A stretch of 64,000 nt of DNA, taken from Sphingomonadales bacterium (lineage in GTDB: Bacteria > Pseudomonadota > Alphaproteobacteria > Sphingomonadales > Sphingomonadaceae). Location: positions 24,390 through 88,389 of the forward strand of contig JADKHG010000008.1 in assembly GCA_016721875.1 (NCBI GenBank), written 5' to 3'. This document shows, in pieces, positions 6,607 to 42,420 of the stretch (position 1 is the stretch's first letter; the number at the start of each line of letters is the position of its first letter). A program made the position numbers and the translations under genes. Below the pieces are notes generated by a model, which ran no database searches, was not told the origin of the DNA, and saw only the letters and a program-made list of their open reading frames with translations.

Positions 6607-8615
6607 CCCCGCAAATCCGGCGCTGCCGCCTCGGCCACCAGCATCGCAATGGCATCCTCAACGCTCATAATCCGCTGGCCTTCCTGCCCCAGCGTGCGGA
6701 TCGCGACTTTGCCTTCCTCGGCCTCGCGGTTGCCGACCACCAGCAGGTGCGGGACTTTCGCGAGGCTGTGTTCGCGTACCTTATAGTTGATCTTCTCGTT
6801 TCGCAGGTCGGTCTCGACACGGATCCCCGCTGCCGCCAGCTTCGCGGTCACTTCGTTCGCATAAGCATCGGCGTCGGAGACAATCGTCGCCACCACTGCC
6901 TGCACGGGCGCGAGCCAGACCGGAAAGCGTCCGGCATAATGTTCGATCAAAATGCCGATAAAGCGCTCGTACGACCCAAAGATCGCGCGGTGCAGCATCA
7001 CCGGGCGGTGCTTGCCGCCATCTTCGCCGACATAGCTGGCGTCCAGCCGCTCGGGCAGCACCCGGTCGGACTGGATCGTGCCAACCTGCCAGGTGCGGCC
7101 AATCGCGTCGGTCAAATGCCATTCGAGCTTGGGCGCGTAAAAAGCGCCTTCGCCGGGCAGTTCTTCCCAGCCATATTCTTCGGTCGCCAGCCCTGCCTTG
7201 ACCACGGCGTCGCGCAGTTCATTCTCCGCCTTGTCCCAATCGGCGTCGCTGCCGAAACGCGCCTCGGGGCGCAGCGCCAGCTTGATCGAATAGGTAAAAC
7301 CGAAATCCTTGTAGATACGGTCGGCAAGCGCGCAGAACTCCTGCACTTCCTCGACAATCTGGTCTTCGCGGCAGAAGATATGGGCATCGTCCTGCGTGAA
7401 TTGCCGCACGCGCATCAGCCCGTGCAGCGCGCCATGCGGCTCGTTGCGGTGGCAGCAGCCATTTTCGTATATGCGCAAAGGCAGGTCGCGGTACGACTTG
7501 ATCCCCTGACGGAAGATCAGGACATGCGCCGGACAGTTCATCGGCTTCAGCGCCATCCAGTCGGCCTCGCCCGAAATCACCGGGCCTTCATCCTCGGTAT
7601 TGGGAACCTCATCGGGAATCACGAACATATTCTCGCGATATTTGCCCCAATGGCCCGATTGCTCCCACTGGCGCGCGTCCATCACCTGCGGGGTTTTGAC
7701 TTCCTTGTAACCAGCGGCGTCAATTGCACGGCGCATATAGGCCTCCAGCGCGCGCCAGATGGTGAAGCCATGCGGGTGCCAGAAAACACTGCCATGTGCT
7801 TCGGATTGCAGGTGGAACAGATCCATGTCCGCGCCCAGCTTGCGATGGTCGCGCTTGGCCGCTTCCTCCAGCCGCAACAGATGCGCGTCCAATTGCTTCT
7901 TGTTGAGCCAGCCAGTGCCATAAATGCGCGTCAGCTGCGCATTATTCTGGTCGCCGCGCCAATAGGCCCCGGCAACGCGCATCAGCTTGAACGCCGCCGG
8001 ATCGAGCTTTCCGGTCGAGGGCAGATGCGGGCCACGGCACATATCCATCCAGTCGTCACCCGACCAATAGACCGATAGCTCCTCACCCTCGGGCAGTTCC
8101 GCCGCCCATTCGGCCTTGAAGCTTTCGCCTGCATCCTTCCAAGTCTGGATCAACGCATCGCGCGCCACAACCTCGCGGCGCAGCGGCTTATCGGCGCGGA
8201 TGATGTCGCGCATCGCTTCCTCGATTGCGGGCAGGTCGTCCTCGGTAAAGGGGCCGCGCGAGGCAGGCGCCAACACGTCATAATAGAAACCGTCATCGGT
8301 CGCCGGGCCAAAGGTGATCTGCGTTCCCGGAAACAGTTTCTGCACTGCCTCGGCCAGCACATGGGCGAAATCGTGGCGGGCAAGCTCCAGCGCATCGGCC
8401 TCGTCGCGGGTCGTGACCAGTGCCAGATTGCAATCGCCGTCGAAGGGGCGGGTCGCATCGCGCAACTCGCCATCGACGCGCGCGGCAATGGTGGCCTTGG
8501 CCAGACCGGGACCGATGGCGGCGGCAATGTCCGCCGGGGTAGTGCCGCGCGCGACTTCACGGGCAGAGCCATCGGGAAGGGTGACGCGGATCATCTCGGA
8601 GGCTTCAAGGGACAT
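6603..8615 (-). CDS. thrS: threonine--tRNA ligase
   Basis: TGS start [10 protein letters not shown], editing-domain [12 protein letters not shown], class II motifs [61 protein letters not shown] 6603-8750 trimmed to ATG 8615; ATG 8594 is the alternative. Confidence 0.95.
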
Positions 8616-30412: not shown

Positions 30413-31006
30413 TTACACACCGCCGGTGCACGTCCCCGCATAGTCGGTGGTCGCCTTCATACCGCCAAACGATTTGGTTGAGCTGGCGCTGAACTCACCG
30501 GTATTCCTGTGGATACGTGGGGAAGCGCTCCATTCCCACTGCTTCCCAAAAGAAGTAGATTTGCTAGGATCGATGCCTTCAATCCAGCCAACAATTGTCA
30601 TTACCCGCCAATCGCCCTCGTCGACGAGGCTAAACCTGTGCTGCCTATCGATCGCACCGTTGCCTCCATAGACCAAAGATCCGTCGTCCAGCGCCGAAAT
30701 CGTGAACTGCCGCTGCTCTGTTGTGGCCGGGCTGCCGATCATCTTACGCGTCACATCGACAGTGCAATAATAGGCCGCCTTGATCGATTTTGGTACCTTC
30801 ACCTGGGATACTTCCGGCGGACCTTGCTTCAGCTTGTCGGGCTCTGTGGATTGCACTGGTCGATTGGACGGAACGCGGGCGGGTACAGTACTCGTCCTTG
30901 TCCGAATCTGTTGCCCGTCGGCACCGGTTCGCGCGGCCGCTGGAGCTGTGGCGGAGGACGCAGCGAGGAGGCTGGCTATCATTCCTTGCTTCAAAATCTT
31001 GATCAC
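30413..31006 (-). CDS. secreted hypothetical protein
   Basis: 197 aa. Signal peptide MIKILKQGMIASLLAASSATAPAAA, Pro/Thr-rich linker, no recognised domain. Confidence 0.5.
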   Translation of the reverse strand: MIKILKQGMIASLLAASSATAPAAARTGADGQQIRTRTSTVPARVPSNRPVQSTEPDKLKQGPPEVSQVKVPKSIKAAYYCTVDVTRKMIGSPATTEQRQFTISALDDGSLVYGGNGAIDRQHRFSLVDEGDWRVMTIVGWIEGIDPSKSTSFGKQWEWSASPRIHRNTGEFSASSTKSFGGMKATTDYAGTCTGGV

Positions 31007-31111
31007 AATGTATCCTTCCAGAATATTGGATTGTTGCCGTTCGCGTAACCCACAGGTCTCGGCCTGCGTGCTGCTGTCCTAAGCCGCGCTCAAATAGGGG
31101 CAGAACCAAAC

Positions 31112-31678
31112 CTACATCCTTCTGATAGGCGGGGGGCCTTTGCGCGGCGTGCAGATCAGTTGGCCGTTGACGTTAGTTATCTCTTTGCCAACCTCGCATT
31201 GGTCCAAATTCAGCGAGCTTGGACTGTAAAACTTGTCGCCTTTTACAGGGAATTTGATGGTGCGATTGTCGTTGGAATCCGGTCGGTCGCAACTTGCCCA
31301 CAACACCGGACTGGGCGTCAATTCAACGCGGATATTTCTACAACTCGCTTTGTAGCTGCCATTGGGCGTCGCGCCGCCTTTGCCCCATGTGCCCGGCGTA
31401 GCAATGCAACCTAAAGTACCGTCCACATTTGCGATATCGCTCCGCTTTGCGCAAAAAGCAGGCTCCAAGGCCGACACGTTTAAGCCGCCATTCGTATTTT
31501 TGCACTGCGCAGTCAGCACACCACCTGAAAATTTGATATTCTGGCATGATTGCAGATAGGAACCGCGAGGTGCAGCGGTGCCAGTCGGGCTAGCTTGCGC
31601 CAGACCTAGTGTGGCAGTGAACGAAGATGCGCTGGCGAGCAATGCCAGGCTCCAGTTAATGAAATTTCGTTTTGTCAT
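31112..31678 (-). CDS. secreted CVNH (cyanovirin-N homology) domain lectin-like protein
   Basis: Start ATG 31678 with signal peptide ...TLGLAQA. Two CVNH half-repeats: GSYLQSCQNIKFSGGVLTAQCKNTNGGLNVSAL..IANVDGTLGC and GSYKASCRNIRV..LWASCD..LNLDQC..ITNVNGQLIC. Compare cyanovirin-N FSQTCYNSAIQGSVLTSTCERTNGGYNTSSIDLNSVIENVDGSLK. Confidence 0.75.
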   Translation of the reverse strand: MTKRNFINWSLALLASASSFTATLGLAQASPTGTAAPRGSYLQSCQNIKFSGGVLTAQCKNTNGGLNVSALEPAFCAKRSDIANVDGTLGCIATPGTWGKGGATPNGSYKASCRNIRVELTPSPVLWASCDRPDSNDNRTIKFPVKGDKFYSPSSLNLDQCEVGKEITNVNGQLICTPRKGPPPIRRM

Positions 31679-31817
31679 GTCAATCTCCTCCTTCGCAACG
31701 CTTGCCAATGTGCAAGACAACTTAATTCAAACGGTCATGGGAGAGGGGCAAAGGCAGGTGAAATGGCCTGGTCGGTTCACGCCATATTCGTGCCGCCGCT
31801 TACCGCCTTCCCTGTCC

Positions 31818-32675
31818 TCAGCAGCTGTTCGGCTTGCCGCTTTCCTTTTCGGCGCTGTAGTAGGCGGCGTAAAAGGCGAGGTTGCTCTTGCCTTCATTGC
31901 GCACCAGGCCGACCAGTTCGCCCGAATCCATCAGTTGGAACAGGCCATCGAGCATCTGGTCGTCTGCGCGCTGGTGCATCTTGATCTTGAGAACGCGGCC
32001 ATCAACGACACCTTCGAATTCGCCCTGTTGATAGGCGTAGCAACCGGCAACGCCATCATCGCTGTCGGTTATATTGAGCCGACCCCAGCCGTTACCGCCC
32101 ATATATTTGCCGGTAAGGTCAGGCATCGTCGCTTCCTGCGTCAGCTGCTTGCCATAGGCGTGAAAGCCGGTGAACGCGGTGTAATCGTCGCCATAATTGT
32201 TGAGTATGGTCAGCCGCACCCATTGCGCCGTCGGGCGTTCCTCGGGTTTGAAGGAAAAGGATTGGCCGTTCTTCGCCATTTTCAGCGTTCCACCCATCAC
32301 TTCTGAAAAGCCCTTGGTTGCTGAGGTTTCGGACACTTCGACAACAAAGTCCTTTGCTGATTTCGTGTCACGATTGAGCCCGGCGGTATCGAACGCAAAG
32401 CCATGGATTTCGGTTGTTTCGGCCAGTTCGAACACGAATACGCTTTCGCCTGCTTCACCTTCCCAGTCGGTCGCCGCAGAGCCATCGATAAGGTTGAGCG
32501 GACCCGCCGACATCGAGCTGATCGCGGGAAAGTCCGGATGTTCCAGAACGCGCCCGCCTGCTGCGAACGCCAGCAGATCGGGCGACCCGGATTCCTTGGC
32601 TATTGCTGGAGCCGACATTGCCGCAACGGCAAAAACGGAAAGCAGGGTTTTGCTGCGGAATGAAATTCTGGTCAT
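31818..32675 (-). CDS. secreted hypothetical protein, possible galactose-binding-like domain
   Basis: 285 aa with signal peptide ...AMSAPAIAKE. The region NLIDGSAATDWEGE...WVRLTILNNYGDDYTAFTGFHAYG weakly resembles a discoidin-type fold. Confidence 0.5.
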   Translation of the reverse strand: MTRISFRSKTLLSVFAVAAMSAPAIAKESGSPDLLAFAAGGRVLEHPDFPAISSMSAGPLNLIDGSAATDWEGEAGESVFVFELAETTEIHGFAFDTAGLNRDTKSAKDFVVEVSETSATKGFSEVMGGTLKMAKNGQSFSFKPEERPTAQWVRLTILNNYGDDYTAFTGFHAYGKQLTQEATMPDLTGKYMGGNGWGRLNITDSDDGVAGCYAYQQGEFEGVVDGRVLKIKMHQRADDQMLDGLFQLMDSGELVGLVRNEGKSNLAFYAAYYSAEKESGKPNSC

Positions 32676-32874
32676 GATAACTCCTCCATTGCTTGTGGCT
32701 TTCGAAAGCCCTCACCAAACAAGACGGGAGGTTTTGATCAAAGCGGACATTGCCGACTCAAGTTATTTCCATTGCAGAAACGAGGCGTTTCGTTAGCTTC
32801 GCTGTGGGTCGTTGGTGCGAGGGGGTCAGGCGGCAGCGCTGCTAACCGCGACGCGCAGCGAAGGCATATTGGAC

Positions 32875-35141
32875 ATGGCCGCGCCGTCGATGGAACCCGA
32901 CGCCGCAAAGCCGACAAGCTATTCATCGCTGGGCGAGGGTCAGGAGATTGGCGGTTTTACGATCGAGCACCTTATCGGCCGTGGCGGCATGGGCGAGGTG
33001 TATCTCGCCCACCGGACGTCGGCGGATTTTACGCAACTCGTTGCGCTCAAACTGCTCCGTGCCGAAGCAGCGGATCGTGGCGATGCCTTCCTGCGCGAAA
33101 GGCGGCTGCTGGCGCGGCTTGAGCATCCCGGTATCGCACGACTGATCGACGCGGGCATCGCGCCTGACGGTCGTCCCTATATGGCGATGGAATATATCGA
33201 GGGACAATCGATTGACCAATATTGCCGAGATCAACAGTGCAGTCTGGAGCAGCGGCTCGACCTGTTCCGCGATGTTTGCGATGCGGTCAGCTATGCGCAT
33301 GCAAAGCTGATCATCCACCGCGATATCAAGCCGTCGAACATCATGATCGATAAAAGCGGCAAGGTTCGCTTGCTCGATTTCGGTATCGCCAAATTGCTCG
33401 ACGATACATCGCTTGTTCCCGCGACAACCCAGGCGATGCTGACCCCCGATTATGCCGCACCCGAACAACTTGACGGCGACGAACCAACGGTGACCGCCGA
33501 TGTCTATGCGTTGGGGATTGTGTTGTACGAGCTGATTTGCGGAAAAGGACCATGGCGGCGCGACGGCGCATCGGTTCCGGCAATCATTCGGCGCGTGCTG
33601 TATGAAGACCCGGCGATGCCAAGCAAGGTAGCGGCAGAAGTCGGCGCGCCTATTCCTGCCAACAGGATTGCAGGCGACCTTGATGCCATCATCATGAAGG
33701 CCATGCGGCGCAACCCGACCGAGCGCTATAGCAGCGTGGCGGATCTAGCGACCGATGTCCGGCGACATCAGGAATTAAAGCCCGTGCATGCGCGTGACGG
33801 CTCGACACGCTATATGGTCGGACGTTTTGTTCGGCGTTACCGCTGGGCAGTCGCCGCCAGCACCGCAGCCATTGCTGCATTGTTGATCGGCGCAGGGGGA
33901 ATTGCTTGGCAGGCACGGCAGACCGCGGTCGAACGCGATATCGCGGTGGCCGAAGCGAAGCGTTCGGAAGCGATCAACAATATGCTCGGCGTTATGCTGA
34001 GCGACAGCGTGTCCGCCAATGACGGCGAAGAGGTAACCGTCAAAAAAATGCTCGACCAGACTTCGACACGGCTGGTTAACACGCTCGATTCCAGTTCGAA
34101 ATCGGGTGCGCTGATCGCAACGGTGTTCGATCTCCACCAAAGCATAGAGGATTTGGCAGGTGCCGACGCTCTGATCCAGAAAGCGCTCAAACGAAATATC
34201 GGCAAGGATGATCCAGTGGCCTTTGCCCGTTTACAGTTGCGGGCAGCGACGATTGCTGCGTCGCTCGACCGCATTGATGAAGCCGGACCATTGCTGGACA
34301 AAGTGCAGCCAATATTTCGTGCAGACCCGATGCGCTATCGCAACGAATTGCTCGATGTTAGCTTGACCCGGGCGCAGGTCCTGCGTCGCACTGGAAAGGC
34401 GGATCAGGCGTTTGCGCTTTTGGTTGAGAACCTGCCCGATGCGGAAAGGATCTTTGCCGGCAAGCCGCGCGAGTTGCTGACGATATATAATAATGTGCTG
34501 GTCAATATGGCCGAAGCCAATCGGTTCGATGCCATGGTCCCCATTTTTGGCCGCGCCGATAAATTCATCGAAACAAACGGGCTGGGTTCGACGCCCACGG
34601 CATTGGCGATCAGGCAATTGAAAGCCGTCCGTCTGATCAAGCTAAAGCAACCAGAGGCTGCCGAACCCGTACTCGAAGAGATCGTGGTAAAGCGACGCGC
34701 TGCATTTGGTGCGTCGGCAGGGTTGGGCGTTGATTTGATGCATCTTGGACGCGCCAAATTGCTGCAAGGCAAATTCGCCGAGGCCGAGCGAAATCTGGGT
34801 GAGGCCTATGGTCTGTTGCAAAATTTATCGGCCCTGCCGCGTTGCCGGCATTTGTGTCGGGATCGACGCTGATCGAAGCACAAGCCGAAAGCGGCAATGC
34901 CGCAGCAGCAAGCAGGACAATCGCAGGGCTGGAGCAGCGGTTACCACCCGCACCTCCAGGCTTCCCGCATGCGTTGTTGAAGCGGGCTAAGGCCGTTGCT
35001 TTTCTGAAAAGTGGCAAATTGGCACAAGCCAAGGCCGAAGCCGATCAATCCGAAGCGATCTTCAAGACTCTGGGTCCGCAAGCCGAACCTTATCTGCAGT
35101 CCTTCCCTGCCTTGCGCGCAAGAATCGCCAAAGGCAGTTAG
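32875..35141 (+). pseudogene. transmembrane Hanks-type Ser/Thr protein kinase with TPR-like tail, frameshifted
   Basis: GRGGMGEVYLA, HRDIKPSNIMI, DFGIAKLL, APEQ. TM WAVAASTAAIAALLIGAGGIAW with a long helical-repeat tail. The frame changes at the A4 run 34820-34823 and the last 100 codons are ORF 34842-35141. Confidence 0.85.
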
Positions 35142-35682
35142 GCCGCTTCCATCTCGTTGTGGATCCACGCCCGCGCCTGCACCCACCAGCGCCGCACGGT
35201 GCGGTCGGTAACGCCAAGGATATCGGCGGTCTCGCGTTCATCCATCCCGGCAAAGAAGCGGCAATCGACAACCTTGGCGAGGTTTGGATCGAGTTTCGAC
35301 AAATTGCCCAGCGCGTCCCCCAGCCGGACAACCTGTTCGTCTTCAGGCACTGCGGCGGCGAGTGAATCCAGACTTTGCGTGTAGCTATAGGTCGGAGCAT
35401 CGCGTTTTGATGCCAAGCGCGCGCGTGCTGCATCGATCAGGATATGGCGGATTGCGGTCGCGGCGCATCCCAGAAAATGCGACTGGCTTTCCCACGCGTC
35501 GCGTTTCCGCAACTTCATATAGGCTTCGTTGATCAGCGCGGTGGTCTGCAAGGTCTGCGGTGAACCCGCGCGATAATGCTCTCGCCGGGCGATTGCCCGC
35601 AATTCCCCATAAAGGCTTTCGATCAGCGCATCGGTAGGACCTGAATAAATTGTTTCAGGCGGAATGTCCGGTTCGATGGCAA
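35138..35682 (-). pseudogene. ECF sigma factor (TIGR02999/ECF43-like), N-terminus apparently frameshifted
   Basis: ORF 35138-35602 has region 2 (TTALINEAYMKL) and region 4 (ETADILGVTDRTVRRWWVQARAWI). There is no ATG/GTG/TTG in frame upstream. About 14 N-terminal codons (MPSNRTFRLKQFIQ) run from TTG 35682 in another frame. Adding one base at CC 35640-35641 joins them to GPTDALIESLYGELRAIA. Confidence 0.7.
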
Positions 35683-35796
35683 TTCTCCGTCTTACCCTAT
35701 GCCGGACGTTCCGACGCCCAATTTATGAAGCGGTGCCGGAATTTAGGCAAGGGGAAACGAGCGCCCAAAATAGGCCCGATTGGAAGGGAATTTGTG

Positions 35797-37548
35797 ATGA
35801 CGAATTGGAGTCGATTGCTGTCCGGTACAGCCTCCTTGGTGGTATTGGGGATGATGACGGTGCCGACGCAAAGCGTTGCAGCGCCCAAATTGCGAATTCC
35901 GGCAACGGTCCCTGCCGTCGAAGAAGCGCCGAAGCCGGTGGTTCGAACGCGCGTTCCGGCAAAGCTGGAAACCGATGAGCCCGCAAAAATTGAAAACAAC
36001 CCCCGAATTCGCAACCCTGTCGCGGCACCTTCTGACGAAGAAGCGGTGAGGGTCGATCATGCCGAGGTTACGCCAGCACCGCCTGTCCGCGTTCGCATAC
36101 CGCGGGTTGACACATCGACGCCTGCCACGTTGGAAACATCGCCCAAAATTCGTACACGCGTACCTGCACCCACCGAAGCATCACCAGAAGTCGAAAATAC
36201 CCCGCGCAGTCGTACGCGCGTGGCGACGCCCGATGTCAAAGGCGAAGAGCAGGCTCCCCGCAGGCTTTATCGCCCGGGCGACACACAGGTCGGCAGCGCG
36301 CTTCCTGTCGGGATTCCTGGCGGGACGGTCCACTCCATAGGATCGACCCAGGCGAATTGTCTGTTTCGCCCGGATGCAAATCTGAATTACAGAAAAAAGC
36401 CACCTACCCCTGGCAGCACGGCTATCCTCGAAATGGTCTGCATACGCGCGGGAGTACCGACTCTTACCGGGTTCCGCTATGACGTTCCGACCGACAAAAA
36501 TACCTCGTCTCCACTTTTGCAAGCCACGCAAATCGACAATGAGGGATTGGCATCGCTGATCACCTACGAAATCGATCCGGTTGAAACCGACCAGACAGGC
36601 AGGCAAGTATATAAGCTCGTTAGCCTTGCCAAAGGTGAGGATGGCCGTCGGACGACCTATTGCATCGATCCTGATGAAGGGCTGCAAAGGAAAGCCGGTT
36701 TTGGTGATCACGATCCGGGTATTGTCGCGACATTCTGGTGCAGCGACGGAACGACGATTTCAGAGCGTTCATTTCAAATCAACAATTGGCTGATGCCAGC
36801 CAACACCGGCAAAGTTTCATTGGGTCCACCGGTTTCTGATAGCACACAAAAGCCCAGAGAATATGGCAGCAATACAAAAGTTGTTCAATATGAAGGCAGT
36901 ACGGGAACCAGCGAAGCAGGACCGTTTCTTATGCGATCAATTATTGGCGGTGGAACCACTTATGCGACCTGCAAACTGAACGGTACCGATGCCGGCAGCC
37001 TGTATTGTACGACAGACCCCATCAATGGTGTGGTGACAACTTATCTCGCGCATAGTCTGCCAAGCGTAAGAGCGCAGATTGGCAAATTGTCGGCACCGAA
37101 ATGTTCGTCAGAAACGGCACCCGTTTATGACGACAAGCATTGGGGATATGACGGCGCGGGCGGACAACTGTCAAAATATGTCCGCTATTATGACGTCACC
37201 ACCACTGTCTGCCATACGCGAAAAATCGGATACACATTGCTCCCCGGTAAAGTTGCGGCGCAAGATCGCGGTAAGGTTAAGGGCGCTTGCTATCTTGCTT
37301 CCTGGGCGGGGATCGTGACCGAGAAAAGTGTCACAATAACCTACGGGCGCGCAGTGGAAGTAACCAAAACCGGCGAACAGGTAATTAACCCGGCCGATAG
37401 GTACGGCCCAGGGGGTATGGAAGATGTTACCAAAGAAGGCAGAACAATCGGCACGAATGGCACGTTGGACCTTAACACAGCGCTGAAAAGCAATGGTGAG
37501 CGCGTCCCGTTGCAGAATATCACCAAAGTAAATGCGCCTTGCACCTGA
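35797..37548 (+). CDS. large secreted orphan protein with degenerate Pro/Arg repeats and a Cys-containing C-terminal domain
   Basis: Start ATG 35797 (GTG 35794) behind GGAAGGG. Signal peptide ...MMTVPTQSVAAP. At least 5 copies of P-x-[IV]R-x-R-[VI]-[PA] (KLRIPA, VVRTRVPA, VRVRIPR, KIRTRVPA, SRTRVAT). 400-aa C-terminal region with about 12 Cys and no recognised domain. Confidence 0.6.
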   Translation: MTNWSRLLSGTASLVVLGMMTVPTQSVAAPKLRIPATVPAVEEAPKPVVRTRVPAKLETDEPAKIENNPRIRNPVAAPSDEEAVRVDHAEVTPAPPVRVRIPRVDTSTPATLETSPKIRTRVPAPTEASPEVENTPRSRTRVATPDVKGEEQAPRRLYRPGDTQVGSALPVGIPGGTVHSIGSTQANCLFRPDANLNYRKKPPTPGSTAILEMVCIRAGVPTLTGFRYDVPTDKNTSSPLLQATQIDNEGLASLITYEIDPVETDQTGRQVYKLVSLAKGEDGRRTTYCIDPDEGLQRKAGFGDHDPGIVATFWCSDGTTISERSFQINNWLMPANTGKVSLGPPVSDSTQKPREYGSNTKVVQYEGSTGTSEAGPFLMRSIIGGGTTYATCKLNGTDAGSLYCTTDPINGVVTTYLAHSLPSVRAQIGKLSAPKCSSETAPVYDDKHWGYDGAGGQLSKYVRYYDVTTTVCHTRKIGYTLLPGKVAAQDRGKVKGACYLASWAGIVTEKSVTITYGRAVEVTKTGEQVINPADRYGPGGMEDVTKEGRTIGTNGTLDLNTALKSNGERVPLQNITKVNAPCT

Positions 37549-37570
37549 ACCCACGAAACGGAGAATTGCG

Positions 37571-38128
37571 ATGAAAAACCTAACCCTATTGATCCTTGTT
37601 TCCACCACTACGCTGATGCTGGCTGGATGCGGCGGAACGGGTGATAGCAGCGACGCTGGCGCTTCCAACGAAGGCACGGTAGCGATCGCTGGCTGGGACG
37701 CGACCAATGCCTGCGCTTTGCTCGACAAAGATGCCGTCGGTGCCGCGTTGAACGACAAAGTGACAGAGGCGACCGTTGCCCTCGTAAATCATGCATCGGG
37801 GGCAAATGCTGCTACCTCGGAATGCACCTATATGCTGGAAAGCGGCGGCAGGGCTTCACTGATGACACGCAACTCACCTATTGCCGATAACACGGACGAA
37901 GCAATAAAATTGGCACACAACGCTACTCAGGAATCAGTTTCGGCATTCACCGACAAAAAGGTCGAGGATATACCGGGGCTTGGCAAGGCGGCCTTCTTTG
38001 TTCCCGGTATCAACCAGCTGAATGTCTTCATCGACGACAAACGCTTTGCCATCCTGACCATCAGCAGCGCCTCCAATGAAAGCGCAAAAGCAACAGCAGT
38101 GGCGCTTTTCGGGAAGATTAGGATCTGA
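37571..38128 (+). CDS. lipoprotein, unknown function
   Basis: Start ATG 37571. Lipobox LMLAGC. 185 aa. 22 nt downstream of the orphan gene. Confidence 0.65.
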   Translation: MKNLTLLILVSTTTLMLAGCGGTGDSSDAGASNEGTVAIAGWDATNACALLDKDAVGAALNDKVTEATVALVNHASGANAATSECTYMLESGGRASLMTRNSPIADNTDEAIKLAHNATQESVSAFTDKKVEDIPGLGKAAFFVPGINQLNVFIDDKRFAILTISSASNESAKATAVALFGKIRI

Positions 38129-38180
38129 TTATAATTGGTTGATGAAACGCTGTAACCGTACTGCATTTATCTCAAATCAT

Positions 38181-38212
38181 TGATCCCGATAGTAGGAATT
38201 GAACCTATAACC
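38181..38212 (-). other. tRNA 3'-end-like fragment (T arm plus acceptor strand only)
   Basis: The minus strand reads TATAGGTTCAATTCCTACTATCGGGATCA, i.e. T loop TTCAATT plus a 3' acceptor strand. No matching 5' acceptor, D arm or anticodon arm lies upstream. Confidence 0.3.
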
Positions 38213-38953
38213 TTCAGGCTCTCAGATTGCCGCATCGTCAGAATGCCGATTTATCCGCTGAACGCGCTTTGGTGGCAACGCGGTAAAGTGAGCTAAAAAT
38301 CGCGCTAATTGCCATTCGATATCAAGTTTCGGCCACTCCAAGCAGATAGCCAATTTGGGCTGCTAATGAAACGCATTTGGCGAGGTCAATGCTGGCTATG
38401 CCGACTGCCTGCATCGCACGCCAAACCGATCTTAGCCGTTTCTACAGACATCAATTCCCTCACAAATTCGTTCAACAATCATCGAGCAAGGTTTCAGAAA
38501 GCGGCCAGCAGCTGCAATAGACACGGCCAAATGAACGGCCGCTTATGATCAATCAACTGGAGCCCCCCGAACGGCCTCTTTCAGGGGCGCCGATTGGGAT
38601 TGCGGACATTCTGAAAGGTGAACTGGCACGTCCGCTGCGCGCCCTCATCGCTTTTTCTCCGAATGGCTTCGAAATCGCATCACAGACTAGGAGACAGCTT
38701 TCACGACCGGACGAGGTTCTTTCATTGTGAGAGTCCGCGCCTCCAAATTCGCGATCACATGCGGTAGCTATACGGTCTGAGAAGCGAAATAGTCGAGTCT
38801 CGAGACCGGCTCCAGAATGCGTGTTCTATGTCGTCGCGCGCGATCATGGCTGAAACGCACGATTCTGCACATGTGTTCGTCAAGATATTGCCTTCCTCCC
38901 ATGGCTTATCGCAAGGTCGCAAATGTCGTTGGCAAACCTCTGCACTATCACCG

Positions 38954-40280: not shown

Positions 40281-41188
40281 ATGACTGACCTGAGCAAAGT
40301 CGGCGCATTTGCCATAGATAGAGGTCGCGATCACTCGGCGTATGCGCTGCGACCGCGCCCTTCGCTCGGCAATGAAATCTTTGCGGCCTTCATTCGCGAC
40401 ACACGCAAGCTGGATTTGCAGCCCCGGCAAAGGTTCAGCTTCTACCCCGCTTTTCCGTTCTGCGTTGTCAACTGGATCTTCGATGGCGCTGCTTACGAAG
40501 TTGCTGGATGCGACGCAGATGTTGACCTGGGCACGGTTCAGCCTCTGCCGAAAGTCTATTTTTGTGGCCCCCGGACGAAGCCGGCGATCCTCTGGAACCC
40601 GGGCAAGACTGTCGTCCTGTCCGTTGGATTTTACCCTCATGCGATTGCAGCGTTGACACACAGTGACGTGGCCGAGCTTGTCGACGTAACAGCGCCTGCC
40701 AGTGCAATCTTGGGAAAGGATATTGCCGCAATCTGTGCCAGCGTCGCAAAAGCCGCCGACCCGGAAGTCGCTTTCGCGCTATTGCAGGACGAACTTGTCC
40801 AGCGGGCAACCATGTCGCCTCCAATCTCATTACCGGGCGAGGCAGACCGCGTCCGCGCGTGGGAACCGGCCATCGCGCTCGAAGCCGCAGGACCGCCTGG
40901 CACAAGGAGCAAGCGCCAGATCGAGCGCCGCATCAAGCAATGGACCGGACATGCACGGCGCGGCCTCGCAATGTACTTGCGCGCGGAGCAATTCTTCGAA
41001 CAGGCGCTCTTGGCGGGATCGCAAGAACCGCCTTGGTCGGGGTTGCCCATGACTTGTGATTTTCGGATCAGTCGCACATGATCCGTGACACAAAACGCCT
41101 CACGGGATTCACGCCAAGGGCGCTCTATCGCCGTCTCGATGAAGAACCATTCTGGTGCTATCGTGTGTTGGGTGGTCTGTTGGCTTAG
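40281..41188 (+). pseudogene. AraC family transcriptional regulator, frame broken
   Basis: ORF 40281-41081 carries the first HTH (SKRQIERRIKQWTGHARRGLAMYLRAEQ). The second HTH (FSDQSHMIRDTKRLTGFTPRALYRRL) is in the +1 frame and ends at TAG 41186-41188. One G is missing in the G4 run 41039-41042. An in-frame TGA at 41057-41059 is explained by compensating TT/G indels at 41054-41058. Confidence 0.7.
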
Positions 41189-41911: not shown

Positions 41912-42420
41912 TCACGGCAAAGCGACAAACTTCCCAGCGTCCCTATCTTTGCGCACCTTCAGCCCGTCAAATACCTGCCCGCTCATCGCGATCCACACGC
42001 CCGCCGGGGCGACCTGCGCCGTTGCAAAGGCCATGCCGAGGTTGAAATTGGCGTCGGTCTCGGCAAAGCGGGCGGGGGATAGCGCTCCGGTCAGGACGAT
42101 GGTTTGCCCGGCACTGCGGCGGCCAGCACCTTCGCGGTTTCGGTCATGGTGTCGGTGCCATGGGTGATGACGATGCGGTTTTCAGGTGCCTCGCGCGCGG
42201 CACTGGCGACGGAAAGCCGGTCGGCATCGGTCAGCTCAAGGCTGTCCTTGCGCATCAGCTCGACAAGGCGGAAGGGCAGCGCCACCCGCGCTTCCTTGAG
42301 CAATGCCGGAATGCCGCTGTCGACAATCTGATATTCGGACAGCGCGTCGAAATAATTTTTGTCGATCGTGCCGCCGGTGGTGAGGATGAGGATACCAGTG
42401 TCTGCCATGGCAACGCGCAT
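41912..42420 (-). pseudogene. short asparaginase-family protein, frameshifted
   Basis: ORF 42091-42420 (ILILTTGGTIDK, ITHGTDTM) continues after the T3 run 42103-42105 as TIVLTGALSPARFAETDANFNLGMAFATAQ... to TGA 41912-41914. Confidence 0.65.

Follow-up and report, generated by a model that had tools for sequence, protein, structure and literature searches.

The stretch of DNA analyzed here, hereafter the window, comprises 64,000 nucleotides of a Sphingomonadales bacterium (GenBank assembly GCA_016721875.1, contig JADKHG010000008.1). Listing of its open reading frames (ORFs), combined with profile searches, placed seven consecutive ORFs within positions 30413-38128, essentially where a preliminary description of the same DNA had drawn a seven-gene patch. 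As judged from their sequences, the ORFs encode an extracytoplasmic function (ECF) sigma factor of the ECF43 type, a Hanks-type Ser/Thr receptor kinase, and five exported proteins, four of which are designated here as P1, P3, P7 and P8, and the fifth by its cyanovirin-N homology (CVNH) domain. The genes and the promoters predicted among them are collected in Table 1. We consider it quite probable that the locus is an ECF43-type signaling module with a compact local regulon.

Table 1. Genes and predicted promoter elements of the locus, with positions in the window.
Feature	Position	Strand	Description
P1	30413..31006	-	197-aa secreted orphan; signal peptide by inspection; no Pfam/NCBIfam family
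CVNH protein	31112..31678	-	Secreted, two-repeat CVNH, lectin-like; PF08881
P3	31818..32675	-	Secreted, two domains: N-terminal SUN/CBM32/discoidin-like beta-sandwich and C-terminal beta domain
Predicted ECF-type promoter of P3	32722..32749	-	TGTCCGCTTTGATCAAAACCTCCCGTCT; perfect motif match
PknS-like receptor Ser/Thr kinase	32812..35141 (called from 32812/32875)	+	Pkinase, TPR_12; disrupted gene
ECF43-type sigma factor	35138..35683	-	Probably 181 aa from non-canonical ATT; minimal ORF from TTG = 35138-35602
Predicted ECF-type promoter of P7-P8	35665..35692	+	TGTCCGGTTCGATGGCAATTCTCCGTCT; perfect motif match
Putative housekeeping-type sigma-gene promoter	35712..35740	-	TTGCCT-N17-CATAAA
P7	35797..37548	+	583-aa secreted protein, ~six degenerate Pro/Arg motifs; no Pfam family
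P8	37571..38128	+	Lipoprotein, LAGC lipobox; 22 nt after P7

By inspection, Sec-type signal peptides were recognized on P1, the CVNH protein, P3 and P7, and an L-A-G-C lipobox at the N-terminus of P8, which agrees with the five exported products of the preliminary description. For P1, P7 and P8, in which that description had recognized no enzymatic domain, the Pfam and NCBIfam profile searches returned no family above threshold.

The sigma factor scored 159.3 bits against TIGR02999 when translated from TTG 35602, and 173.8 bits when extended upstream, the cut-off being 126; the extended protein matched the profile from position 19. PF07638 was also matched above its cut-off (E=1e-29), in keeping with an ECF sigma factor made up of sigma2 and sigma4 only, and a sequence search of the PDB gave no match. 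ECF43 sigma factors have as their hallmark, in region 2.2, an uncharged (Q/S)TTA with a conserved Thr in place of the acidic DAED/DxxD (PMC13147305, PMC8999054), and region 2.2 of the sigma factor in the window indeed contains LQTTAL instead of the acidic DAED (PQTLQTTALINEAY). In the aligned relatives this motif reads TLQ(T/P/A)TAL, of which the second Thr, preceding A-L, was invariant in 33/33, and the linker between sigma2 and sigma4 also carries conserved Ser/Thr residues. The predicted phospho-acceptor is T48 in Q46-T47-T48-A49, in the numbering of the 181-aa protein. No anti-sigma family was matched by the neighboring genes in Pfam or NCBIfam, P1, P7 and P8 being secreted and without an assigned family. 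By its TIGR02999 match, its QTTA, the adjacent Hanks kinase and the lack of an anti-sigma match nearby, the sigma factor is of the ECF43 type; this assignment had been anticipated in the preliminary description, which likewise saw no anti-sigma gene.

In the kinase, Pfam profiles detected Pkinase (E=6e-48) and TPR_12, the latter denoting tetratricopeptide repeats (TPRs), and the translation contains the GRGGMGEV, VALK, HRDIKPSN, DFG and APE motifs as well as a hydrophobic segment, WAVAASTAAIAALLIGAGGIAW. Intact alleles begin with an N-terminal extension that would be cytoplasmic; the Hanks domain comes next, then one transmembrane segment and finally the periplasmic TPRs. In the window, the Hanks domain with its single transmembrane segment and the extracytoplasmic sensor region are retained, whereas an intact full-length ORF with the conserved N-terminal extension is lacking. 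Thus, the membrane Hanks kinase with a TPR-like tail that had been described stands as far as its domains are concerned, although its reading frame is broken by a 132-bp deletion and a frameshift. The kinase gene (+) and the sigma gene (-) converge, their stop codons overlapping, and do not form an operon.

The proposed link from this pair to the exported proteins is a promoter motif. It was first seen on aligning the upstream regions of P3, as a GTCCGnTTT...CCGTCTTG block present where P3 is divergent from the kinase, and a pattern search then recovered this 26-mer from the conserved block that precedes the sigma gene, where it is on the opposite strand and directed toward the divergent gene. 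The consensus, TGTCCGSTT-N14-CGTCT, has exactly two matches in the 64-kb window, both perfect, and no further site was found in the 64 kb even at two mismatches. The copy on the P3 side (32749..32722, -) has a -10 element ending 47 nt before the ATG of P3, and the copy on the P7-P8 side (35665..35692, +) overlaps the first codons of the divergent sigma gene. A position weight matrix (PWM), trained solely on other loci, gave 40.7 bits at 35665..35692 and 32.8 bits at 32722..32749, the next best score in the window being 9.4 and the background mean -48. In related loci, all of the ~45 strict instances of the motif were found 0-180 nt upstream of gene starts, and none within a gene; the genes behind them were P3, P7, P8, YadA-like genes, the families here termed F5 and F9, and a small ORF of the QFAAE type, described below, that precedes P3. 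The motif is upstream of P3 also in other loci, and in most loci the block is found upstream of the YadA-like, F5 or P7 gene divergent from sigma. Overall, the motif is kept in several genera and in each of three gene arrangements.

Two further observations extend beyond the immediate neighborhood. In Sphingomonas colocasiae, the P8 homologue is on a different scaffold from the sigma/kinase pair, with the motif 41 nt upstream. In a metagenome-wide scan for the motif, most matches were due to chance, 114/120 loci containing no related gene, and 6/120 adjoined relatives of the kinase or of the TIGR02999-type sigma factor; the motif was thereby found beside sigma/kinase pairs only 38-39% identical to those of the window, with DTTA or QATG in region 2.2. 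Because the unlinked P8 of S. colocasiae and the distant pairs carry it, the motif appears tied to this sigma family by more than proximity. These comparisons show that predicted promoters of the form TGTCCGSTT-N14-CGTCT exist and are conserved, and from the co-localisation across genera and arrangements we infer that this sigma factor reads them. The preliminary description had suggested four intergenic regions in which to look for a shared -35/-10 motif; it was found within two of these (32676-32874 and 35603-35796) but not in 31007-31111 or 31679-31817. In three metagenome contigs (L144, L157 and L085) with pairs 35-39% identical, TGTCCGSTT-N14-CGTCT is placed either upstream of the kinase or divergent from sigma, before small secreted proteins. 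The consensus may, on these occurrences, apply to a much wider ECF43 subgroup.

A scan of a genome collection with the sigma factor retrieved 29 Sphingomonadales/Caulobacterales loci of 72-95% identity plus one distant locus, and the proteins of the window were placed in the 29 by tblastn. The kinase was tail-to-tail with sigma in 29/29, and adjoins sigma also in L032, L036, L038, L043 and L044. P3 was adjacent to the pair in about 20 of the 29 loci and P8 in about 15, where it directly follows P3 except in L002, which has P7-P8 as in the window; P7 was confined to the closest relatives, and the CVNH and P1 genes to the window's own species. Three arrangements were encountered: P3 divergent from the kinase, as in the window; a co-directional P3-P8-sigma unit (L014-L020); and a co-directional F9-P3-P8-kinase unit (L022-L029, L036, L038), the ECF motif standing at the head of these units. 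The slot divergent from sigma is filled, depending on the genus, by a YadA-type trimeric autotransporter adhesin (with Pfam YadA_head, stalk and anchor matches), by the ~1000-aa protein F5, or by P7. More distant P3 homologues (41-52% identity, including OmpA fusions) have a kinase gene and, convergent to it, a Sigma70_ECF gene beside them in L032, L036 and L038, so that 3/4 of the P3-side contexts have the pair. In L043 and L044, retrieved through P1 relatives of 78% and 70% identity, the whole block P8-P7-sigma-kinase-P3-CVNH-P1 is kept amid different flanking genes. Co-occurrence of the P3, P8, P7 and P1 homologues with the sigma/kinase pair, on which the original proposal depended, was thus borne out.

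Two features of these other loci are recorded here in their own right. A family that is not encoded in the window always precedes P3 in other genera (L014-L020, ~7800-8330; L022-L029, 14405-15745; L038, 6538-8004). It is marked by a mature N-terminus of QFAA(E/S) and a C-terminal SIGDRSVADL...VQDAE..RTVIGK, occurs on its own, at 137-153 aa, or makes up the end of a Gly/Asn-rich protein (446-503 aa), and has the ECF motif upstream. In L032 (950-9733), from an organism of 66% G+C, the sigma/kinase pair is followed by a six-gene cluster for an OmpA/DUF748 protein, a 367-aa DUF3558 protein, two unknowns, a P3-OmpA fusion and a 128-aa protein, and the intergenic region holds only a diverged version of the motif.

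Comparison with L043/L044 also allowed selection to be estimated. The ratio of nonsynonymous to synonymous substitution rates (dN/dS) was 0-0.02 for sigma, 0.05 for P3, 0.10 for P8, 0.09-0.15 for the kinase, 0.08-0.14 for CVNH, 0.36 for P7 and 0.41-0.72 for P1; by these ratios, all seven genes are under purifying selection. The synonymous divergence (dS) from L043 is a mosaic, being 1.4-2.4 for CVNH and the kinase, and 0.14-0.47 for P1, P3, sigma, P7 and P8, which suggests recombination within the seven-gene block.

The 5' end of the sigma gene deserves a separate account, since one of the two motif copies lies in it. There is no in-frame ATG, GTG or TTG upstream of TTG 35602, though the TIGR02999 homology continues there. 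The NCBI annotation of a near-identical genome (L042, introduced below) starts sigma at ATT (35683), giving 181 aa; in the close relatives L002 and L003, the ATT of the window at 35665 is replaced by ATG; and many Sphingomonadales orthologues also have no canonical start, those of L043 and L044 having been called at 137 aa only. The N-terminal region upstream of the TTG is probably coding, since it is conserved in frame, an indel of 15 nt in it keeps the frame, its inclusion raises the TIGR02999 score, and the NCBI annotation starts at ATT; translation probably begins there, at a non-canonical ATT. A GGAGAA..ATCGA..CCGGAC block was at one point taken for a Shine-Dalgarno sequence followed by an ATC start, and was rejected on finding that it is the reverse complement of the divergent ECF-type promoter. 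Further upstream, in an alignment of 28 regions preceding sigma, CTTGCC and CA-TAAA/TGAA blocks are kept in >=80%, among them loci that lack a divergent gene. The pattern CTTGCC-N18-CATAAA, equivalent to TTGCCT-N17-CATAAA, is putatively a non-ECF, housekeeping-type promoter of the sigma gene (35712..35740). The predicted promoters of sigma and P7 would then be face-to-face, the latter inside the first sigma codons and the predicted starts a few nucleotides apart; mutual interference between them is a speculative corollary.

Among the exported proteins, P3 has two domains. Its Pfam matches to F5_F8_type_C and Sad1_UNC (28.5 and 31.1 bits) were borderline, just above the cut-offs. In its AlphaFold model (predicted local distance difference test score, pLDDT, 87.9), residues ~35-180 form a SUN/CBM32/discoidin-type sandwich, for which Foldseek returned SUN2, CBM32 and F5/8 type C structures at probability 1.0 (E ~2e-9, target-normalised TM-score 0.64-0.76). 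The discoidin-like character that had been ascribed to P3 is thus supported by the model, which has a galactose-binding-like jelly-roll. As modeled, the N-terminal domain superposes on both SUN2 and CBM32. In contrast to SUN, CBM32 and F5/8 type C proteins, however, P3 has an additional C-terminal beta domain of ~100 aa, for which Foldseek found no PDB match, and is not attached to any enzyme; C212 and the C-terminal C285 are both invariant, and its distant homologues are fused to OmpA peptidoglycan-binding domains.

The CVNH protein, described from the start as a lectin, matched PF08881 at 35.3 bits against a gathering cut-off of 24.5 (E=2e-8, profile positions 2-101) and cyanovirin-N in the PDB (E=2e-7). 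It shares with cyanovirin-N the CVNH domain of two tandem repeats, but has insertions in the second repeat, and reached 42 bits against a cut-off of 80 on the NCBIfam mannose-binding-lectin equivalog; the lectin assignment holds at the level of the family, and glycan binding is a prediction. P1, which follows P3-CVNH in every context retrieved, has only 12 homologues among 5.8 billion proteins and, by its substitution ratios, is fast-evolving. The spacer between P3 and CVNH (31679-31817) is ~90% identical in L043/L044, as against ~72-79% amino-acid identity for the P1 protein, and might contain an RNA element or a promoter, for which TTGCCC-N16-TGAATT is a weak candidate. A simple scan detected no terminator between P3, CVNH and P1, the counts not exceeding those of shuffled controls; because of this, transcription from the P3 promoter may continue into CVNH and P1.

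P7 is also rare, with 15 related clusters only among 1.84 billion representatives. It was initially called a repeat protein, which applies only to its ~six degenerate Pro/Arg peptide motifs (xVRxRxP) and not to its DNA, in which no tandem repeat was found; it also has a Cys-containing C-terminal domain with no assigned fold. The N-terminal and Pro/Arg motif are shared with the F5-type proteins that fill the same slot in other genera. In L003, L006, L010, L016 and L020, the large secreted proteins in this slot have long Pro/Arg repeat arrays, e.g., TPVRxRRIPVEATPP. One Pro/Arg stretch of P1, QIRTRTSTVPARVP, resembles these repeats; beyond this single motif, P1 and P7 had no significant similarity (E=0.23). 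The P8 family is larger, with >200 homologues, some of them stand-alone, and with C48 and C85 invariant. PF12079 (DUF3558) was matched by 4/25 family members at E 1e-4 or weaker, though not by the P8 of the window, and one member is named DUF3558 by UniRef; on this basis the family is weakly related to DUF3558. The P8 model (pLDDT 81) has an alpha/beta fold, and a Foldseek search of the PDB returned noise only (E above 0.04).

When set beside experimentally studied pairs, the system belongs to the ECF43/Hanks-kinase class by the features tested, and the closest characterized case is EcfK/PknS of Xanthomonas citri, which consists of an ECF43 sigma factor and a Hanks receptor kinase (PMC13147305). 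Like EcfK, the sigma factor of the window is of the TIGR02999/ECF43 type, with a phospho-acceptor Thr (predicted here) in region 2.2 and Ser/Thr residues in the linker; its T48, counted from the ATT start, is close to T51 of EcfK. Like PknS, the kinase in its intact form is ~810-830 aa long and has the domain order given above, from the N-terminal extension to the periplasmic TPRs. The X. citri pair has no anti-sigma gene, and no anti-sigma match was seen near the pair of the window. They differ in that the window has QTTA where EcfK has QATE, one acidic residue being kept in the latter, and in that the genes of the window are convergent with overlapping stops, with a predicted promoter embedded in the sigma gene. 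The outputs differ as well: EcfK/PknS controls a type VI secretion system induced by amoeba contact, whereas the predicted output here consists of a SUN/CBM32-like protein, a lipoprotein, and secreted or adhesin-type proteins. A second related pair is EcfP/PknT of Vibrio parahaemolyticus, in which EcfP, an ECF43 with STTA in place of DAED, is intrinsically inactive and is activated on Thr phosphorylation by the adjacent kinase; the same activation was shown for an alphaproteobacterial ECF43 pair, that of Hyphomonas neptunium (PMC8999054). Although the preliminary description had regarded ECF43 regulons as essentially uncharacterized, two are in fact known, namely polymyxin resistance in V. parahaemolyticus and type VI secretion in X. 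citri. The signal and the regulon of the window, both predicted only, differ from those of EcfP.

The circuit that we propose would operate as follows. The receptor kinase would sense an extracytoplasmic cue through its periplasmic TPR region, and would phosphorylate the intrinsically inactive sigma factor on the Thr of QTTA (T48), possibly also on Ser/Thr of the linker, thereby supplying the negative charge needed for binding to the beta' subunit of RNA polymerase. Such kinase-dependent phosphorylation has been shown experimentally for EcfP and EcfK only, and for the sigma factor of the window it is deduced from family membership; nonetheless, given the ECF43 hallmarks, control of sigma by the kinase, as originally proposed, would be the expected mechanism. 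The holoenzyme would then transcribe from the TGTCCGSTT-N14-CGTCT promoters, the targets in the window being P3, which would be periplasmic or associated with the outer membrane, and the P7-P8 pair, with CVNH and P1 possibly read through behind P3. Since the P7 slot elsewhere is occupied by YadA-type adhesins or large secreted proteins, the likely output is a remodeling of surface adhesion or glycan binding. The earlier suggestion that the adjacent secretome is the regulon thus appears largely right for P3, P7 and P8, on the strength of the motif and its conservation, and is unproven for CVNH and P1, which have no motif and are linked to the pair in a narrow clade.

Several observations weigh against such a module. 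In this window, the kinase is truncated and frameshifted, and the sigma gene has no canonical start codon. No motif was found upstream of CVNH or P1, where the best PWM scores were -10 and -15, respectively, and by the loci retrieved these two genes are linked to the module in a narrow clade only. A distant P3 homologue (L034) has no sigma/kinase pair within its short contig, and some P8 homologues, e.g., in L040, stand alone without the motif. It is also to be noted that another ECF sigma factor could read the motif. The lesions of the kinase could be defined against two close relatives, an ENA metagenome contig (L001) that is 99.8% identical to the window across 20 kb, and the NCBI metagenome-assembled genome GCA_016711625.1 (L042, annotated Sphingomonadales bacterium), 99.5-99.7% identical, in both of which the kinase is intact at 813 aa. 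Relative to these, the window has lost the ATG and the first 42 codons of the kinase through a net deletion of 132 bp, in frame, at 32825/32826, and a contraction of A5 to A4 at 34819 shifts the frame, which stops at 34872, the TPR tail resuming in ORF 34842-35141. From these lesions it might be argued that the module is decaying in this organism, the kinase being a pseudogene, the sigma ATG lost, and the flanking genes no longer under such control, a view consistent with the ATG that L002 and L003 have in place of the ATT. However, all three 1-bp differences from L001 within the 20 kb are ORF-breaking homopolymer contractions (A5->A4, G5->G4, T4->T3), as is typical of sequencing error; the frameshift at 34819 therefore looks like one, and the pattern suggests homopolymer errors in this assembly. 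Of the other two, that at 41038 (G5->G4) cuts an AraC-type regulator to 266 aa (302 aa in L001), and that at 42102 (T4->T3) falls inside an asparaginase-family gene. The 132-bp deletion may be real, but it is in frame, with TTG and GTG codons just upstream, and leaves the kinase-domain motifs intact, while L001 and L042 have the ATT start as well, and purifying selection on the sigma protein is extreme. Decay is thus doubtful, although we give it some weight; either the circuit may be impaired in this organism or the sequence may be in error.

Other readings of the locus concern the role of its parts rather than their integrity. The -35 element of the GTCC type and the -10 element of the CGTC type are like those of many ECF groups, and a different ECF sigma factor, encoded elsewhere, might thus read TGTCCG...CGTCT, its closeness to the present pair being coincidental or due to cross-regulation; the assignment of the motif to the sigma factor of the window is itself a deduction from co-localisation. 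Considering, however, that the motif travels with the sigma locus through the three arrangements and several genera, stands by the 38-39% identical pairs of unrelated metagenomes, and occupies part of the 5' end of the very sigma gene, this is very improbable. That P3, P8 and the QFAAE-type protein are extracytoplasmic co-sensors or modulators that bind the TPR region of the kinase, their sigma-dependent promoters forming a feedback loop, is compatible with the proposed regulon and does not exclude it. Accessory lipoproteins act in this manner in other envelope signaling systems; no partners of the pair are more conserved than P3 and P8, which have very low dN/dS and, in some genera, share motif-headed transcription units with sigma or the kinase; and TPR regions typically mediate protein-protein contacts (PMC13147305). 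Nevertheless, ~9/29 loci have neither P3 nor P8 within 10 kb, and there are copies of P8 unlinked to the pair, and we regard a co-sensor role as unlikely, if still worth keeping in mind. Lastly, the seven genes could be an arbitrary patch of horizontally acquired, low-G+C orphans with no functional connection. P1 and P7 are indeed very rare families, the flanking genes differ in L043 and L044, and a tRNA-like fragment lies just downstream of P8. But the low G+C that had been attributed to the patch is not distinctive: at 0.561, against 0.583 for the window, the region is at the 27th percentile among windows of the same size, and the LysR, DAO and UbiE genes on its flanks have values no higher than its own, which rules out a low-G+C island. 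As the block is, moreover, conserved as a unit, with a shared promoter and purifying selection, an arbitrary patch is already contradicted and scarcely credible. The tRNA-like fragment, GGTTCAATTCC (~38183-38235, - strand), resembles a T-arm and 3' end, and is situated in an 825-bp non-coding gap of low G+C (0.507; 38129-38953) between P8 and the UbiE-type methyltransferase gene, possibly the scar of a former integration. Scanned with Rfam and ARAGORN, neither 29.5-40 kb nor the window as a whole gave any non-coding RNA.

In practical terms, the locus flags three annotation problems, namely a non-canonical sigma start, a promoter within the sigma coding region, and a damaged kinase allele. More generally, ECF43 sigma/kinase pairs are widespread while only two of their regulons have been characterized experimentally, and the present analysis adds a concrete promoter consensus for a Sphingomonadales-wide subgroup, with predicted targets that include a SUN/CBM32-like envelope protein, a conserved lipoprotein, YadA-type adhesins and other large secreted proteins. 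It also gives a regulatory context to the uncharacterized families P3, P8, P7 and P1. It is tempting to go further and to view the SUN/CBM32-like P3, the DUF3558-like lipoprotein and the TPR kinase as a trio that senses glycans or surface contact, in which P3, aided by CVNH in this clade, would bind foreign or self polysaccharide and signal through the TPR region to sigma, switching on adhesins, either YadA-type or Pro/Arg-repeat proteins, with feedback on the sensor genes. We consider this rather improbable as it stands, but if true, it would constitute an undescribed contact-sensing circuit for the control of adhesion, built on an ECF43 pair and paralleling the sensing of amoeba contact by PknS/EcfK.

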